From: Bdellovibrionales bacterium
GTDB lineage: Bacteria; Bdellovibrionota; Bdellovibrionia; Bdellovibrionales; DASUEL01
Length of the DNA stretch: 64,000 bases
Reading direction: 5' to 3'
NCBI GenBank assembly: GCA_050250255.1
Contig: JBFWOZ010000008.1
Coordinates: 1-64,000 of the forward strand
Below the pieces are notes generated by a model. The model did no database searches. It was not told where the DNA came from and saw only the letters and a list, made by a program, of their open reading frames with translations. Numbering within the stretch: position 1 is the first letter of the stretch; each line of letters opens with the position of its first letter. This document shows positions 8,855 to 50,296 of the stretch, one piece after another. The position numbers and the translations under genes are program-made.

Positions 8855-10198
8855 TTACTTCTTTGATAATTCCTCGAAAATCTCCGGCATGTCTAATCGC
8901 CCACCCCAAATGGTACGGGACATGCTTCGCTGATCAGAGGTGATATGTCGGCTCATTACCGAAGTTAATTCATCAAAACTCAAATGAGGATAATGACTTT
9001 TGATTAATCCCACGCATCCCGCAACTCCGGGAGAAGCCATGCTTGTTCCACTCATGGACTGATAAGTGTTTCCCGGAGTCGTGCTATAGACATCTGCTCC
9101 TCCCATAGAAACGTGAACCGAATTTCTTCCATAATTAGACCAAGGGGTCATCCCAGAACTACTCGTTTCATAGAGCGCAGCCACTGTAATAAGACCTGGA
9201 ACTTTAAATTCTGCTGGATAAGCTTTGCCCTCTAGATCCAAATTTTTTCCATCATTTCCGGCAGCCACAACGTTGAGAACTCCAGCTTGAGAGGCCGCTT
9301 TGAAAGCGTCTTCGAGCGCTGGGTTGTACTCATCGCTCCCCCAGGAGCTATTGATCACAGTGGCTTTCATTTTTACCGCGTACTCGATGGCTTCAATCGC
9401 ATCCGCATCCGTGCCCGAACCATTGGCTCCCATAAATTTTAATCCCATGATGGAGCATCGAGGACAATGTCCGGCAATTCCCACACCGTTCCCACCAACG
9501 GCAGCGGCAATTCCCGCTACGTGTGTTCCGTGATTATGGTCGTCATAAGGTTTAGATTTTTTTCCGGCAAAATCATATCCAACGACGTCATCGATGTAAC
9601 CGTTCTCGTCATCATCCACACCGTTGGTTTCTTTTGGGCGATTTTGTGAGTCGACCCCTGTCTCACCTGGATTACGCCAAAGATTAGCGACAAGATCAGG
9701 ATGAGTGTAATCGATTCCCGTATCAAGAACCGCAATGATTGTATCGGGATGACCAATGGCTTGATAATTCTTCCACACAAGTCGCGTACCACTTTGGTAG
9801 TCACTCGTACCGTAATTCAAACTTTCTTTGGGGTCCGTTTTCCACGTGGTGGGCTGCGGAACAAAAGCAGGAATTGCCGGCACATCTTTTGGTTTAGGAG
9901 GCTTCGGCGAACCCATATTCACCCGACGTACATAATTGGGTACGACGTAGTCAGCACCTAATTCCTTTTTGAGAGCCTCCAAGGTTTTTTGCGCGTCCTT
10001 TTCAGAAACGTTCACACGCATAAGGCCAGGCACAATTTCATATTTTTTTAGAACCGTCGACTGAGTTCGCTTAACCACAGATTCCACATTCGCGGCAGAA
10101 GACCTGAAAGAGTGAGGGTTCACGCGAATTAAATATTCAGCGGCAAGTCCTGATGAAGCGCATAAAGAAATAAAAAGTAGAGAAAAAAGATTTTTCAT
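8855..10198 (-). CDS. Secreted S8 family serine peptidase (subtilase)
   Basis: Signal peptide; catalytic triad AVLDTG, HGTHVAG, GTSMASP; AAGN oxyanion motif. Confidence 0.95.
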   Translation of the reverse strand: MKNLFSLLFISLCASSGLAAEYLIRVNPHSFRSSAANVESVVKRTQSTVLKKYEIVPGLMRVNVSEKDAQKTLEALKKELGADYVVPNYVRRVNMGSPKPPKPKDVPAIPAFVPQPTTWKTDPKESLNYGTSDYQSGTRLVWKNYQAIGHPDTIIAVLDTGIDYTHPDLVANLWRNPGETGVDSQNRPKETNGVDDDENGYIDDVVGYDFAGKKSKPYDDHNHGTHVAGIAAAVGGNGVGIAGHCPRCSIMGLKFMGANGSGTDADAIEAIEYAVKMKATVINSSWGSDEYNPALEDAFKAASQAGVLNVVAAGNDGKNLDLEGKAYPAEFKVPGLITVAALYETSSSGMTPWSNYGRNSVHVSMGGADVYSTTPGNTYQSMSGTSMASPGVAGCVGLIKSHYPHLSFDELTSVMSRHITSDQRSMSRTIWGGRLDMPEIFEELSKK

Positions 10199-18812: not shown

Positions 18813-19412
18813 ATGCCAAGAAAAAAGCTTATATATACTCATGAATTTCCCTACCACGTGAGCGCAAGGTCCAATAACAAAGAATGGTTCTACCTACCAA
18901 AAGAAAAGGTTTGGGAAATATTTATTACCGAACTTAATTACATCTCAGTCAAATACAAGGTACTGATTCATGCTTTTGTGCTGATGGACAATCATTATCA
19001 CTTATTACTCACTACATATCCCAATTGTGATTTAGGGAAAGTTCTATGTGAACTGCAAAAATCCGTAAGTCGGAAAATCAATTTCTATGCGGGTAGAATT
19101 AATCATGTTTTTGGTGGCCCCACCAAACCTTCCCTCATCGTTACGCCAGAGTCTTATCAACGAGTTTTAAAATATATTTATAGAAATCCTGTAACCGCAA
19201 ATTTAACCACACATGTAGAGCACTATAAATACTCGAGCTTAAACAGCGACCGCTTTGGATTATCAAGTCCTATAGGATCTATTGCACGCATGGTTCCGCA
19301 AGAAGGTCTAAATGAATGGCTTAATCAAGCCGAGTCTCCAGACGACTACGAAGCCACAAAACATGGATTAAAGAGAACCACCTTTAAACCTAGAATTTTA
19401 AGGAAATACTAA
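18813..19412 (+). CDS. REP-associated tyrosine (Y1/HUH) transposase, RAYT
   Basis: MPRK..YHVSARSNN, AFVLMDNHYHLL (HUH), YIYRNPV (catalytic Tyr), YKYSS. Confidence 0.9.
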   Translation: MPRKKLIYTHEFPYHVSARSNNKEWFYLPKEKVWEIFITELNYISVKYKVLIHAFVLMDNHYHLLLTTYPNCDLGKVLCELQKSVSRKINFYAGRINHVFGGPTKPSLIVTPESYQRVLKYIYRNPVTANLTTHVEHYKYSSLNSDRFGLSSPIGSIARMVPQEGLNEWLNQAESPDDYEATKHGLKRTTFKPRILRKY

Positions 19413-45101: not shown

Positions 45102-45752
45102 TTTCTTTTGCTCCGCACGAGCTTTCAACCACGTAAAAACCATAGGTAGCATCGACACGATAATGATTCCGAAGATCACGATGTGGAAATTTCTTTTCAC
45201 TTCAGGAATATTTCCAAACATGTATCCCGCGACAAGAAAAATCCCGACCCACAACACGGCACCAATAATGTTGTACACGAGGAATCTCGTGTAGTTCATG
45301 CGCGCCACTCCCGCCACGAAAGGCGAAAAGGTACGAACGATTGGCATGAAGCGAGTGACGATAATCGTGAGGGCTCCGTGCTTGTCATAGAATTTTTGAG
45401 TTTTAAGAAGATGTTGCTTATTTAAAAGCCAAGTAGATTTTCTTTCAAACACTTTGGGACCAAGCCATTTTCCAATAGCATAATTCACCGTATTGCCAAG
45501 GACACCAGCAACTACGAGGAGCACAAACATGAGGGGAAGGCTTAACTCACTTCCCTCGAGCGTGATCACAGCACCTACTGCGAATAGCAGCGAATCTCCA
45601 GGGAGAAAGGGTGTAACGACCAGGCCCGTTTCTGCAAATATAATTAGGAATAAAATGAGGTAGGTCCACAGGCCAAAATAAAGCGTGAGTTTTACGAGGT
45701 GAACATCAAGATGCAACATTACGTCGATAAAATAAAGTAGGTAATCCATCAT
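45087..45752 (-). CDS. DedA family membrane protein
   Basis: FAETGLVVTPFLPGDSLLF, RFMPIVRTFSPFVAG; start set at ATG 45752. Confidence 0.95.
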   Translation of the reverse strand: MMDYLLYFIDVMLHLDVHLVKLTLYFGLWTYLILFLIIFAETGLVVTPFLPGDSLLFAVGAVITLEGSELSLPLMFVLLVVAGVLGNTVNYAIGKWLGPKVFERKSTWLLNKQHLLKTQKFYDKHGALTIIVTRFMPIVRTFSPFVAGVARMNYTRFLVYNIIGAVLWVGIFLVAGYMFGNIPEVKRNFHIVIFGIIIVSMLPMVFTWLKARAEQKKLKTS

Positions 45753-45839
45753 GGACTTATCATCGTCGCGTACCTGAGAAGTTGCAAATAAAATATTTGG
45801 TAAGTTGACATGTCTGTAGAGAAATAACAGCCTCATAAT

Positions 45840-46160
45840 ATGAAGATATTAACTTGGCTGATGTTTACATGCTTGGTAGCACAATCCGAAGTTGATAAAG
45901 TATTTGTTGGTACATTCTCTAAAATTGAGTGGGGCGATTACAACCATATTGTTCTTATAGATAAAGCTGGCAAAAACGTGAGTTTTTGGTGTGGCATGAT
46001 GCAGGGGCAAGCACTCAATTGTAATGAAATCGAATCGCATTCAAATAAATATGCCGGAAAGAAAATGAAAATAACTTATAAAACCATTAAAAGTTATGTA
46101 CCAGAAGCTAAAGAAAATATCACAAAACAAGAAACTACTAAAATAGAACTTCTTAAGTAA
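45840..46160 (+). CDS. Small AT-rich secreted hypothetical protein
   Basis: Short signal-like N-terminus; GTFSKIEWGDYNH; two Cys. Confidence 0.6.
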   Translation: MKILTWLMFTCLVAQSEVDKVFVGTFSKIEWGDYNHIVLIDKAGKNVSFWCGMMQGQALNCNEIESHSNKYAGKKMKITYKTIKSYVPEAKENITKQETTKIELLK

Positions 46161-46203
46161 TTCATTATGCTAAAGCAACCTTGAATGAACCTAAAACGCA
46201 TAA

Positions 46204-47007
46204 TCAATGCGTATGCGTCAGCCGATGGTGCCCCGAACAAAGCGTCGTAAGATTCTCTAAAGCATCATTTCCACCTTTATTACGAGGAATAATGTGATGG
46301 GTGTCGAGCCACCTCCGCTCCTCGCACCTTTGTCCCATTGAGTCGCGGTGAGTGCACTGACCGCGATCTCTCAAAATCACCTGTCGCGCGACAGGGAAAT
46401 TGGCCCGATGCTGTAATTTCTCGGCTTTTCTCACTGGATCTTTTTGCTCTAAGTAGATATTGAGCAAAGCTTCAAGCGTATCTTCAAGACTCGCATGTTT
46501 TTGTTGGCGTTGAGATTCCAACTCTTGGGCTCGTTTGAGTTTTTGATGAAGCTCTTTAGAAATGCCCATTTGCAGGTTGAGTCTTTCTTCACTTACAAAC
46601 TTCACCCGCTCAGGAGTCGACTCTTGAGGGCAAATTGTAGCAACTTGCTGTTCAAGTTTTTTCTGCGGCAGCTCAATGGCCATCTTGAGCCACTCCTCCT
46701 GATTCGTAGGAGTCAAAACCGGCGTGATCTTTCTTGCCTTCGAAACGCTGAGCGTACCTGATTGAATCGCTCGCTTCAGCTCAGGCACTTCCTTGGCTTT
46801 TCTCGCTACGGTGATAAAATTGTAAGCCGTACTTTCACTCAACTTCAACACATTCACCGTATAGTCATAGAGACTTTTGCATTCGAATTTTAAATACACC
46901 CGGCCATCATCGATTTGCTGGAGAACTTCAATCACATCTGATTCCGCCTTTTTGAATCGCCCCGCTACAGCCAAAGCTTTTTGATGAATTTCCATATACT
47001 TCGTCAT
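46204..47007 (-). CDS. HNH endonuclease with DUF222-like helical N-terminal region
   Basis: LRDRGQC..C...DTHHIIPRNKGG...NLTTLCSGHH...H; N-terminal SLYDY..LKLSES..Y; AAAAGGAG RBS. Confidence 0.88.
   Translation of the reverse strand: MTKYMEIHQKALAVAGRFKKAESDVIEVLQQIDDGRVYLKFECKSLYDYTVNVLKLSESTAYNFITVARKAKEVPELKRAIQSGTLSVSKARKITPVLTPTNQEEWLKMAIELPQKKLEQQVATICPQESTPERVKFVSEERLNLQMGISKELHQKLKRAQELESQRQQKHASLEDTLEALLNIYLEQKDPVRKAEKLQHRANFPVARQVILRDRGQCTHRDSMGQRCEERRWLDTHHIIPRNKGGNDALENLTTLCSGHHRLTHTH
46380..46395. repeat. 16-bp palindrome, copy 1 (inside the HNH CDS)
   Basis: CCTGTCGCGCGACAGG, encoding PVARQ. Confidence 0.9.
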
Positions 47008-47264
47008 GCTTATCTCCTTTTCGCTAAAAGTTGCATGACCATAACATAGATTTTTCTGAGCACATTTATGAAGAGCGAAGAATGGTTTTTAAAATGCATT
47101 TAAACTTTCATAAATGCTCTCGGTCAAATTGATTTTATAAATTCAAAAATCGAAAATATTTTTTCATGTACGTGACAAGTATTCAACTTTAAGATTTAAG
47201 AAAATGTGTCAATGTTTTCTTCATATTTATTTGATTAGATATATTTGAACTACACGGCCGCAAG

Positions 47265-47280
47265 CCTGTCGCGCGACAGG
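47265..47280. repeat. 16-bp palindrome, copy 2 (intergenic)
   Basis: CCTGTCGCGCGACAGG followed by TAA; identical to copy 1. Confidence 0.9.
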
Positions 47281-47386
47281 TAATTTCAACAAGTCTCTGT
47301 CTTTCATGACGAATGATCGCTGCTAAAATTACGTTTATTGACAGCTTTGATTCGACAACCATAGACTATGGCTAAAGGATAATTTT

Positions 47387-47842
47387 ATGAGAAACCTCTT
47401 CCTCTGTTGTTTTTTTCTAGCGGGCTGCACAACTTCTTTCAAACGAGAAGGCTACAGCATTAGCTCGTACCAAGCTGATCCTCAGCAGTGCAAAGTGGCT
47501 ATACGGTATCAAGCCAAACCTGAAGAAAAAGCTGGAAAGCTTTTAGGAACAATTTCGGCAAGTGAACCCGGATTAGGAACCACTTGTGATCATGAATATG
47601 TCGTCCTTCAGTTCCTGAAAGATGCCTGCGAGATAAAAGCGGACTTAATCAATATCATCGAAGAAAAGTTTCCAGACCATATTAGCACTTGTTATCGTGC
47701 AAAGGCCGAATTGATTGCTGTGAACTCTAAACGCTTACTAAGAACTGATGCCAGATATTATCCAGACAAAATACGTAAAAATACCAAGAAGCTTGGCCAA
47801 ATATTTACTGAGCAGTTTAAAGCTCAATGGAACAATGAGTAG
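47387..47842 (+). CDS. Hypothetical lipoprotein
   Basis: Lipobox LAGC; several Cys; AAGGA RBS. Confidence 0.75.
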   Translation: MRNLFLCCFFLAGCTTSFKREGYSISSYQADPQQCKVAIRYQAKPEEKAGKLLGTISASEPGLGTTCDHEYVVLQFLKDACEIKADLINIIEEKFPDHISTCYRAKAELIAVNSKRLLRTDARYYPDKIRKNTKKLGQIFTEQFKAQWNNE

Positions 47843-48014
47843 TTGTTGCTGAAATATTCCTAGCCGAAAGCGCTGATCACAGCAACAGCATTTCAGGGAG
47901 CATTTCGTGACAAATAATGGCTAAACGTTATACTTTTTTTGTTACTTCTGATGAGCTCTGCCGGGTGAAATATCCCTCAAATTCAAATAAACTAACAAGC
48001 AGTTGTCTTTTCTC

Positions 48015-48030
48015 AGGTCTGTCTCTTGCA
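48015..48030 (+). promoter_or_regulatory. Putative sigma54 promoter
   Basis: AGGTCTGTCTCTTGCA (GG-N10-GC), similar to the 3088-3103 site. Confidence 0.4.
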
Positions 48031-48065
48031 CTTACGTCTACTACTTATCAAAACAGGAGAATCAA

Positions 48066-48335
48066 ATGAAACTTTCGCTTATTGGAATGCTGGTTTTGTC
48101 TTTTAGCACCATGGCTTCTGCTGATAGTTTTTCTGACAATTGCGACAGCATGCGAGAGCATGCAGTTATTCTATCCACCAATCTTCAAGCGATTAGCAAA
48201 AATGAATTAAATATTGCGCTTGAAGCTGCAAAAGAAGGTAAGCAAATTGATTTGAAGTCTTCTAATGAAGGCATTATAAATATTGCAGATACTATCGATA
48301 GACTAAACTACAAAATCAATCAGCAGTGCAAATAG
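48066..48335 (+). CDS. Small secreted helical protein (two Cys)
   Basis: CAGGAG RBS; signal peptide ending TMASA. Confidence 0.7.
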   Translation: MKLSLIGMLVLSFSTMASADSFSDNCDSMREHAVILSTNLQAISKNELNIALEAAKEGKQIDLKSSNEGIINIADTIDRLNYKINQQCK

Positions 48336-48392
48336 CTACCAACTACATACCTGAGCAAGCAACGACCGCAATACCACGAAATTCCATAGGAA

Positions 48393-48408
48393 CCTGTCGC
48401 ACAACAGG
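48393..48408. repeat. 16-bp palindrome, copy 3 (2 mismatches)
   Basis: CCTGTCGCACAACAGG followed by TAA. Confidence 0.75.
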
Positions 48409-48660
48409 TAAATAGAAGCCAACAAATATTTTTAGTGAATCAATGATTAGATAACGACCCAAGTATGTTTATCGTGGATAGCTAGCTTGCTTCTGAAACT
48501 TTCATACCTGCTCGCCTACTAACTGCAATCCCACAGCATTTCATGACAAATATTGCTCTCGGGTTGGCAAACTAATAATTTATTGGAGTCTGAAATTTGC
48601 AATAGATGATTCAGAGTCCATTAGACATTGGTTCAAATCGTATTTAAGAGGAGGCTATTT

Positions 48661-48975
48661 ATGAAGAGCACAATTATTGTCACTTTCATCGCATTTTTAG
48701 GATTGATTTCAAATGCCCACGCCCAAAGCGGGACCGCCAAAGTGTGCGGTAAGGTAAGCCGAATTACCACTGAAGACATCGGTTCTTCTGACATTGAAAT
48801 TAAGAATGCGAATGGGACTATAGAAGTCGTACGACTATCTACAAATGCCCATAAGCTTTATCCTAGTTTTTTTCTTGCACAAACTGCTTTTATTTCTAAA
48901 GCAAATGTATGTGCCGATGTGGAGTGGGGAACAAGCCTGATTAAGAATGTCTATTCTATGACAATTTCGAATTAA
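48661..48975 (+). CDS. Small secreted beta-rich protein (two Cys)
   Basis: GAGGAGG RBS; signal peptide ending NAHA. Confidence 0.72.
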   Translation: MKSTIIVTFIAFLGLISNAHAQSGTAKVCGKVSRITTEDIGSSDIEIKNANGTIEVVRLSTNAHKLYPSFFLAQTAFISKANVCADVEWGTSLIKNVYSMTISN

Positions 48976-48976
48976 G

Positions 48977-49359
48977 TTAGCTCGCCTTGGAAACAAACGG
49001 GCTGCTGAGTGTTACACACATGAACACATACACAGGCAAGCCCTTGTGCCCCTCGATCTTCCATTCTTTCGAAGTCATCTTCAGAGAAGAAATTGCGCTT
49101 GAAGCAGTCAAGTGTTGGTAAACATTCTCAGAGACCGCAACCTCATGAGCATCGGCAAAAGCTTGTAATTTAGAAGCTAAGTTCACGGAGTTTCCAAAGT
49201 AATCCATACCGTGATTGAGATTCACCGCAATCACCGATCCGACGTGCATTGAAATTCTTAATCGTAAGGGCGTATCCAGATTATTCTGAGCAAAGCTTTT
49301 TTTTGGATTTCAACAGCAGCTTCGAAAGCATCATCGATGGATCCAAAAGCGCCCGTCAC
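48977..49359 (-). pseudogene. Truncated, frameshifted class III adenylate/guanylate cyclase C-terminus
   Basis: VTGAFGSIDDAFEAAVEIQK, frameshift near the A8 run at about 49297-49304, then DTPLRLRISMHVG...DYFGNSVNLASKLQ; N-terminal part absent. Confidence 0.8.
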
Positions 49360-49414
49360 TTAAGAATTCTTCGGATTTTTTAAGGGCCTCACCAAGTCTA
49401 GATCGACCTTCGCC

Positions 49415-50296
49415 CTAGGTCTTTACAACAGAAGTTTCGGTGCGCACTACGCCATAAGCCGAAGCGATAATGAGAAGCGCCCCGCCCCACTGAGTAAGGC
49501 TTAAGCGGTCACCTAGAATCGCAAACGCAAAGAGAGCTGCGAAAGGAGATTCGAGAAGAAACAGGAGGCTCGCAAGTGACGAAGATAAAACTTTTTGCGC
49601 ACGAATCTGAAGCATAAACGCAAGAATTGTACTTCCAAAAATCAGCCACGCGAGTCCAAAAAGACCGACATTGGACCACGGCCATCGCCACTCTTCTGGA
49701 AAAACAAAAAGCAAAACAGCCGGAAGCCACATCGCCCAAAAACTTTGATAAGTATTAAAGGCCACCGAAGAATCAATACGGTTGGAAACTTGTCCCACGA
49801 AGAGGATATGCATAGTCGCACCCAGAGAACATCCGAGCGTGAGCAAATCTCCTAAGTTCCAATCCCCAGCGTGGAAATTACAAATGAGCGCCGTACCTAC
49901 AAGCGCAATCAGCACGTACACGTAATGACTAAAAATAATTTTTCGACGGTAGAAAAAACGCTCCATCAACGGAACAAACACGATATAAAGAGTCGTAATG
50001 AAACTGCTCTTCGTAGCGGTTGTGTATTGCAATCCCCAGGTTTGTAAAACCATGAGAAGACCGAGCATCATGCCCGGCCAAAAAGACAAAGTTAAAATTT
50101 TACGATGATTGGTATTTTTAAGTGACGGAATGAGAAAGAAAAATGGCAGAGTCGCAACAATCGCAACTACAAACCGAACCACCGCCATGGTCAGCGGACC
50201 CATGTCCCTTAGAGCAAAAACGGTGGCAATAAAACCAAAACCCCAGATGGCGCCAGCGAAAATCAATTCGCCGACGGCACGACGCTCACTGATCAT
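49415..50296 (-). CDS. DMT/EamA family transporter
   Basis: About 10 TM helices; IWGFGF, QTWGLQYTTATKSSFITTLY, GDLLTL. Confidence 0.92.
   Translation of the reverse strand: MISERRAVGELIFAGAIWGFGFIATVFALRDMGPLTMAVVRFVVAIVATLPFFFLIPSLKNTNHRKILTLSFWPGMMLGLLMVLQTWGLQYTTATKSSFITTLYIVFVPLMERFFYRRKIIFSHYVYVLIALVGTALICNFHAGDWNLGDLLTLGCSLGATMHILFVGQVSNRIDSSVAFNTYQSFWAMWLPAVLLFVFPEEWRWPWSNVGLFGLAWLIFGSTILAFMLQIRAQKVLSSSLASLLFLLESPFAALFAFAILGDRLSLTQWGGALLIIASAYGVVRTETSVVKT

Follow-up and report, generated by a model that had tools for sequence, protein, structure and literature searches.

Several described systems share features with an island at positions 45840 to 49360 of a 64,000-nucleotide stretch of a Bdellovibrionales genome (contig JBFWOZ010000008.1, positions 1 to 64,000; hereafter the window), in which a gene for an HNH-type nuclease faces away from small genes with signal-peptide-like starts. 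Free-standing HNH homing endonucleases are selfish nicking enzymes with a helix-turn-helix (HTH) type DNA-binding part; they cut the empty allele and their own intact site is missing, whereas in the window the presumed site stands intact inside and beside the HNH gene. Like the DUF222-HNH or REP13E12 repeats of mycobacteria (PF02720 plus HNH), the window gene is multicopy, dispersed and stand-alone, with a C-terminal HNH domain, a helical N-terminal part and an unexplained mechanism, but its protein is shorter and has no DUF222 match. PMC10589994 lists REP13E12/HNH/DUF222 as a class of repetitive element.

In REP/RAYT systems, short extragenic palindromes cluster beside the cognate enzyme gene and are scattered genome-wide, in lineage-specific enzyme-site pairs (PMC3116915). 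Dispersed extragenic palindromes are tied to a cognate enzyme gene here as well. Unlike in REP/RAYT, however, the enzyme is predicted to consist of HTH, ribbon-helix-helix (RHH) and HNH parts and not to be a Y1 HUH transposase, the gene adjoining the repeats is the HNH gene while the listed Y1_Tnp genes lie elsewhere, the HNH gene is multicopy where RAYTs are single-copy, and the site also occurs in the gene, solo sites being mostly singlets. With ParB-parS and Noc-NBS the element shares a predicted DNA-binding fold and a 16-bp palindrome as its likely site; in contrast to these, its model has no CTP-binding N-terminal domain, an HNH domain is fused to it, the site lies in its own gene, and the gene is multicopy and patchily distributed.

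Integrons are defined in PMC4889954 by a tyrosine recombinase together with clusters of attC sites and mostly promoterless cassettes. As in integrons and attC-site clusters without an integron integrase (CALINs), the enzyme gene of the window faces away from co-oriented, unrelated, AT-rich small genes, and a related genome (G260) holds an array with GNAT and DUF2846 genes; unlike in these, the window has neither IntI nor an attC-like pair. The IntI profile (TIGR02249) gave 11 weak matches genome-wide, none of them over the cut-off and none on this contig, and a pattern-and-fold scan of 45701-49450 found no attC-like pair (inverse core and core 50-145 nt apart) in the spacers. These scans agree with a preliminary description of the locus, which had noted neither integrase nor attC, and an integron or CALIN was rejected. 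By this comparison the element appears nearest to REP-RAYT in repeat pattern and to the integron in outcome, and falls outside the definition of both. No description of it was found in the literature, nor, for DUF222-HNH, of an in-gene palindrome, a conserved bidirectional left end or passengers, in a search that left subscription papers mostly outside.

The HNH gene is present in multiple copies, a palindrome lies in its own linker and again upstream, and the left end, in this genome, is conserved as far as the -35-like box that precedes a divergent accessory gene. With somewhat better than even confidence, we interpret these as features of a selfish HTH-RHH-HNH element that binds the site in its gene and nicks nearby, repair producing mosaics and rare moves, and whose left end, in this lineage, drives and carries one accessory gene; the island would consist of stacked left ends and passengers behind one live copy. 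The island is likely to comprise one intact copy of a likely selfish multicopy nuclease element and a pile-up of accessory genes from earlier visits.

We infer binding, nicking and co-mobility along the following lines. The protein would dimerise via the RHH part, the ParB/Noc-like HTH would bind the palindrome and the HNH domain would nick near it; template-switching repair or site-anchored recombination could then produce the duplications, inversions and deletions that relatives show locally, and the same repair may seed solo sites and occasionally move the gene. With the site contained in the gene, the reading protein and its site would evolve and travel together. Less firmly, and for this lineage, the left end may provide an outward promoter, one accessory gene moving with the element; the gene at 47387 would then be the passenger carried at present, and those at 48066 and 48661, both preceded by a box resembling the left end, would have been carried earlier, by copies that have since lost the nuclease gene.

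Multicopy HNH genes of the DUF222-like type occur commonly but lack an explanation, and here one is connected with a named 16-bp site, one predicted switch residue and a predicted nick. The dragging of accessory genes by the element, if true, would be an undescribed gene-capture route and a non-integron way for predatory bacteria to collect small secreted and accessory genes, and the family would be one of compact (267 aa) site-specific nickases with natural specificity variants.

The HNH gene family and the palindrome inside the gene

The HNH gene had been described as single, which holds only locally: the genome search found 9 full close copies (69-75% protein and 68-88% nucleotide identity), besides several fragments and 8 matches to a distant subfamily. 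In the 6 copy pairs counted, synonymous changes exceeded non-synonymous ones 3-8x, which points to old copies kept intact, unlike a recent burst of an insertion sequence (IS). Matches were present in 25 of the 41 genomes searched, with up to 48 per genome. A profile search returned 2,651 clusters at E<=1e-30, and according to the labels of the homologues the family occurs mainly in Bdellovibrionota.

Pfam placed the HNH domain (PF01844) at aa 228-261 of the window protein. The structure model (pLDDT 91.9) predicts a ParB/Noc-like HTH at about aa 16-129, an RHH at 143-191 and a zinc-type HNH at 204-267. Its best comparisons were with the DNA-binding domains of ParB/Spo0J/KorB (Z 7.1, rmsd 3.5, 99 aligned), with RHH domains (TraM RHH; Z 5.2, rmsd 2.5, 49 aligned) and with HNH domains (Z 7.0, rmsd 1.4, 57 aligned; IscB among the best HNH fold matches). 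A weak HTH_ParB match was given by 8 of 30 near homologues; the N-terminal ParB/Srx CTPase domain gave no ParBc match, and the protein opens with a long helix that is followed directly by the HTH. The label 'DUF222-like' of the preliminary description stands at the family level, since DUF222 (PF02720) was matched by 4 of 21 diverse homologues (best E 1.3e-7), but not for the window protein itself or its near homologues (0/30 in Pfam); the family appears, from these matches, to be distantly related to the DUF222-HNH repeats. Scans of 21 members against Pfam and NCBIfam found no DDE, HUH, serine or DEDD transposase family, and the flank alignment, for which no close empty site defines the ends, showed no shared terminal inverted repeat and target duplication.

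A matrix built only from the sites of another genome found the palindrome (repeat 1) at exactly three places in 3.1 Mb, namely 46380, 47265 and, in degenerate form, 48393. CTGTC-N4-GACAG occurs 10 times genome-wide versus 0-3 times for each other spacer length from 0 to 10. By this control the shared repeat reported earlier from the spacers is real and beyond chance; its position inside the gene and its family-wide occurrence had been missed. All 9 copies carry a variant of the palindrome at the same linker codons. Translated, TGTC-N4-GACA reads V-x-[RG]-[QH], a motif that was found in the linkers of 67 of 118 near homologues as compared with 5.6% of shuffled linkers.

In ParB and Noc the HTH recognition helix reads 16-bp palindromes and few residues switch specificity, as stated in PMC7383237. 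In the HNH family, HTH residue 62 was the single column that predicted the last letter of the linker motif (mutual information 0.85, next column 0.48) and tracked the outer base of the site: Y/F was accompanied by Q in 51/54 and A/S/G by H in 36/39 proteins, 87/93 in total. These counts come from three sets, together 328 proteins with a length of >=220 aa; a row was left uncounted if it had neither motif, had both, or had another residue. On a quick tree of the 93 rows the two traits change 13 and 15 times, and among 6 independent pairs on well-supported branches the change was in the same direction in 5.8 on average and never in the opposite one (median p 0.031, range to 0.22). Since residue 62 co-varies with the site in 87 of 93 proteins, the protein likely binds its own palindrome.

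Several results count against such binding. Leucine at residue 62 (15 rows: 7 Q, 8 H) was dropped after the second set, the rule thus being refined post hoc, and p was 0.125 in earlier tree tests on smaller sets. The most diverse set had the motif in 19 of 121 proteins, and there the residue-site rule was not significant (p 0.27). The covariation could alternatively stem from a protein-protein contact. As to the fold, all Z-scores are below 8 and middling, and Foldseek had no match at E<=0.001, although rows for ParB and Noc turn up repeatedly.

Some members depart from the usual gene structure. One HNH copy (C1 8615-9115) has an internal deletion that joins aa 49 to about aa 150, with palindrome, leader, trailer and passenger kept. 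At six loci of another genome (G012 L048-L052, L058), HNH linkers reach up to ~190 aa and repeat F-x-R-T-V-like motifs, which looks like an in-frame duplication of the in-gene site.

The conserved left end and the divergent accessory genes

Upstream of the HNH gene, the leader contains an extended -10-like box (~47038-47046) and an inner TTGAC box (47207-47212); no conserved RNA fold was found in it. Repeat 2, TTTCRTGACRAAT, gave 6 exact matches in the genome versus a mean of 0.7 for 60 shuffled patterns, the motif having been defined after being seen. Three of the 6 belong to the island, where each plus-strand gene has one upstream of it, and this shared repeat, too, had been correctly recognised beforehand. 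From its resemblance to the conserved end of other leaders, repeat 2 appears to be the left-end box of the element: with a matrix from 10 other leaders, made without the window sites, the box at 47899 ranks 9th of 6.18 million positions and that at 47298 ranks 210. The conserved left end stops a few bases short of a -35-like box, and its distance to the start codon of the neighbouring gene is nearly constant. Promoter-like matches precede 47387 and 48066, but such matches were fewer than in shuffles.

The genes beyond these ends were compared for 14 leaders of this genome, 13 of which have an upstream open reading frame (ORF), with crude ORF and signal calls. Twelve of the 13 leaders face a divergent gene (baseline 55%, p 0.005), mostly 318-437 nt from the HNH start, and 5/13 neighbours combine small size with a start resembling a signal peptide (baseline 11.8%, p 0.013). 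All 12 divergent neighbours are of accessory types and AT-rich, with a median GC of 0.40 (p ~1e-5 to 6e-5). In relatives, flaG and fliD are adjacent in 4/4 genomes with a match (5 searched); here they are split by the element and a redoxin gene, a pair bracketed by an inverted 100-nt hairpin. At a second locus 2 of 13 relatives are without element and neighbour, the other 11 being uninformative. The suggestion of an HNH-associated insertion or gene-capture hotspot is supported for this lineage by the divergent, AT-rich accessory neighbours and by the absence of element and neighbour from conserved operons in relatives. The small genes at 45840, 47387 and 48661 were neither syntenic nor conserved in the relatives searched; synteny and conservation in relatives lacking the HNH gene would, according to the preliminary description, have contradicted a hotspot.

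Against joint movement of element and neighbour stand the following points. Four of the 13 leaders are leader-only, being cut by other insertions and contig ends, so that the HNH gene of those four is unseen. The neighbour bias is absent in G006 (9/22 divergent, 1/22 small secreted) and in G029 (0/5 small secreted), G012 (0/5) and G017 (0/3). Locus C6 gave no informative empty site, at locus C46 the interval in the relative holds ~600 different bases and lacks an HNH gene between the flanking genes, and because the empty sites come from other families, joint and successive insertion are indistinguishable. The dedA-EamA interval, which had been proposed for comparison between relatives, yielded no empty site for the window locus in the 5 genomes tried, where dedA and EamA have other neighbours; the EamA-typA adjacency is kept in G001, whose contig ends there. 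Single-protein collection scans for near strains returned 1 locus from metagenomes, 7 from genomes and 0 from viruses, not one of them close. The third left-end box, at 48535, was missed by the leader matrix; with a profile of the whole end the other window boxes were weak (E 0.28 and 5.9) and the third was not found.

An unlikely, though by no means far-fetched, explanation is that element and site are real while the small genes are bystanders and not cargo, the element landing upstream of existing accessory-gene promoters in patches of high turnover. The missing neighbour bias in four other genomes would fit this, as would the outer-end -35-like boxes, which vary in sequence. Homologues of the 47387 lipoprotein were found in 6 of 300 genomes in differing contexts, with no HNH gene within 1.5 kb in those 6 genomes, and in G212, which has no HNH gene, the positions corresponding to the G313 sites are likewise occupied by variable secreted genes; both results also weigh against carriage by the element. 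Bystanders would leave less well explained that the conserved end stops a few bases from the box at a near-fixed distance to the start codon, that 12/12 divergent neighbours are accessory-looking and AT-rich, that one element-neighbour pair is hairpin-bracketed inside an operon that is tight in relatives, and that a second small gene, one not adjoined by an HNH gene, is preceded by a left-end-like box.

The leaders themselves are targets of other insertions. At the ends of contigs C22, C37 and C57 (L094, L095, L096), three HNH-type leaders carry an identical insert at one and the same base, whose junction adjoins the extended -10-like box and which has a long non-coding end. The start of its ORF resembles what we take to be IS110-family transposases, and the insert looks like a target-specific IS for which the HNH element serves as a safe haven. 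In a fourth leader (C62) the interruption is due to another ORF, presumably IS3-like.

Sites and rearrangements in related genomes

Sites are most numerous in G029, with 63 exact ones versus 0 for the control, and those listed are located either at an HNH gene or at the end of a contig. Across 7 loci of this genome, 36 sites combine their arms in 18 ways; a module of 315-335 nt lies to either side of the gene in inverted orientation, and in one case the gene's own sequence gives way to a flank module exactly at the in-gene site. In G006, a non-palindromic variant of the motif is located at the 3' end of 21/22 genes and upstream of 22/22, with 209 matches in 106 kb versus 4 in 151 kb of other loci. 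In relatives the site appears, on comparison of these sequences, to mark module swaps, inversions and tandem arrays. Weighing on the other side, the G029 mosaics rest on a draft assembly in which mis-joins are possible, and solo sites, mostly singlets, usually lie just past stop codons, those of housekeeping genes included; in G313 a cluster of four sites encloses groEL.

The tandem arrays of G006 (L033, L038, L040, L060) consist of the in-gene motif in units of 18-25 nt and <=26 copies, 200-1100 nt upstream of HNH genes.

The site variant of the window is rare and patchy: it was found exactly in 5 of 301 genomes of the order, with <=2 mismatches in 14 of 182 genomes in one family, most as single chance-level matches, and in 10 of 301 genomes in the phylum. 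Genomes with dispersed sites (G001, G029, G260, G313, G368 and G518) also hold an HNH gene carrying the same site, whereas in G212, a congener of G313, no HNH match was found and the orthologous places that were examined carry no site. Comparisons of G368 with 9 congeneric loci and of G313 with G212 were too diverged for the junctions of a solo-site footprint.

An extended form of the interpretation, which we regard as doubtful, is recombinase-free gene capture: a ParB-HTH/HNH protein would read and nick the palindrome of its own gene, spread, and assemble accessory arrays behind an outward promoter or between sites, a residue-to-base code giving each clade its own site. In G260 (C18; L100:2894-6601), an accessory array with four 20-bp palindromes lies downstream of a leucyl aminopeptidase gene and runs off the contig. 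It contains a GNAT gene, a DUF2846 lipoprotein gene, DUF6163, secreted genes and a second GNAT gene; the four sites, of 10 in that genome, fall within 2.9 kb, each 0-80 nt past a stop codon, and no HNH gene was present in the 6.6 kb read.

The same array, whose sites separate accessory genes, is the best case for an integrase-free cassette system, in which the palindrome would be the recombination site bounding cassettes that the HNH protein excises and inserts. Two window genes between sites 47265 and 48393 and the reassortment of arms exactly at the site could be explained in this way, too. We nevertheless give it little credence: the solo sites also follow housekeeping genes and surround groEL, the segments between sites in G029 are 90-480 nt long and non-coding, the G260 array has no HNH gene in the 6.6 kb read, the window genes have promoter-like boxes of their own, and no gene appeared at two places with a site on either flank. 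Moreover, HNH domains are nucleases and not recombinases. The integron-like cassette system of the preliminary description finds weak support in the array of one other genome, but not in the housekeeping sites, the non-coding inter-site segments, the four genomes without neighbour bias or the lipoprotein homologues away from HNH genes.

It is still less probable that the palindrome is only an operator or Noc-like site of a domesticated DNA-binding protein, the mosaics being REP-like hairpins moved in trans by Y1/RAYT or by replication slippage. The strong purifying selection on old diverged copies would agree with domestication, the upstream palindrome is positioned between inward and outward promoter-like boxes, and the solo sites are distributed in a REP-like manner. 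Eight Y1_Tnp matches (180-220 aa, a RAYT-like size) were found in the genome, 6 of them over the cut-off and one in the window at 18852-19082. However, none of the 7 matches of the 100-nt hairpin (C1 8357-8459 / 10035-10134 among them) is near the listed Y1 genes, whereas 5 are no more than 1 kb away from an HNH gene. Cysteines and histidines of the HNH domain do not vary, the same site spreads patchily across families together with the gene, and an operator alone leaves arm swapping and tandem arrays unexplained.

An RNA-associated (HEARO- or OMEGA-like) nuclease with a structured 3' trailer as guide scaffold is hardly credible: a conserved three-way junction with variable loop inserts does lie just past the stop of 7 other copies (6/23 pairs changed on both sides) and IscB is among the best HNH fold matches, but the window copy has no such trailer, Rfam gave no match, the leader is unstructured, the IscB match spans the HNH domain only (29 bits vs cut-off 175), and the flanks are unrelated in other lineages.

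Layout of the island and its small genes

The features of the island are collected in Table 1. The coordinates of the four small ORFs and of the HNH ORF agree with those given earlier, as does the right border at a broken adenylate cyclase gene, which is a truncated and frameshifted PF00211 remnant.

Table 1. Positions of genes, palindromes and left-end features in the island (window coordinates)
Feature	Position	Strand	Remarks
106-aa ORF, signal-peptide-like start, GC 0.33	45840..46160	+	convergent with HNH gene; no sign of element membership
267-aa nuclease (HNH) gene	46204..47007	-	one of 9 intact close copies in genome
16-bp perfect palindrome in HNH gene, linker codons P-V-A-R-Q-V before HNH domain	46380..46395	.	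likely protein binding site
Non-coding leader / element left end, conserved	47008..47345	-	ribosome-binding site, A/T tracts, boxes; no conserved RNA structure
Upstream palindrome copy	47265..47280	.	within extra ~55-nt stretch that this genome's other leaders lack
Putative left-end box (repeat 2, copy 1)	47298..47325	+	matrix comparison with other leaders
Outward sigma70-like promoter match TTGACA-18-TAGACT	47338..47367	+	other leaders: -35-like box at same position
151-aa lipoprotein gene, putative divergent passenger of the window copy	47387..47842	+	
Repeat 2, copy 2; likely left over from the left end of another element	47899..47926	+	matrix rank 9
89-aa ORF, signal-peptide-like start, GC 0.36, candidate stacked passenger	48066..48335	+	
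Third palindrome, degenerate	48393..48408	.	outer arm same as extragenic sites of another genome
Repeat 2, copy 3	48535..48555	+	19/21 identical to copy 2; outside 520 best matrix matches
104-aa ORF, signal-peptide-like start, GC 0.39, candidate stacked passenger	48661..48975	+	
Adenylate/guanylate cyclase remnant (PF00211), N-terminal part lost, frame broken	48977..49370	-	right border of island

That the small genes encode secreted proteins or lipoproteins, as had been proposed, is supported by a signal-peptide-like or lipobox-like N-terminus in each translation. Their GC content is 0.33-0.41 as compared with a genome median of 0.44. In a Pfam scan none of the four ORFs matched a family over the cut-off, and none has a paralogue elsewhere in the same genome. 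When 200 other genomes were searched, one weak homologue was found for the 45840 ORF and none for the 48661 ORF; a weak match of the latter to Cas7f/Csy3 was under the cut-off and was disregarded. The PADLOC defence scan gave nothing beyond weak HNH-level or chance matches. Directly after the stop codon of the lipoprotein gene, an imperfect inverted repeat (47846-47895) runs into the second left-end-like box.

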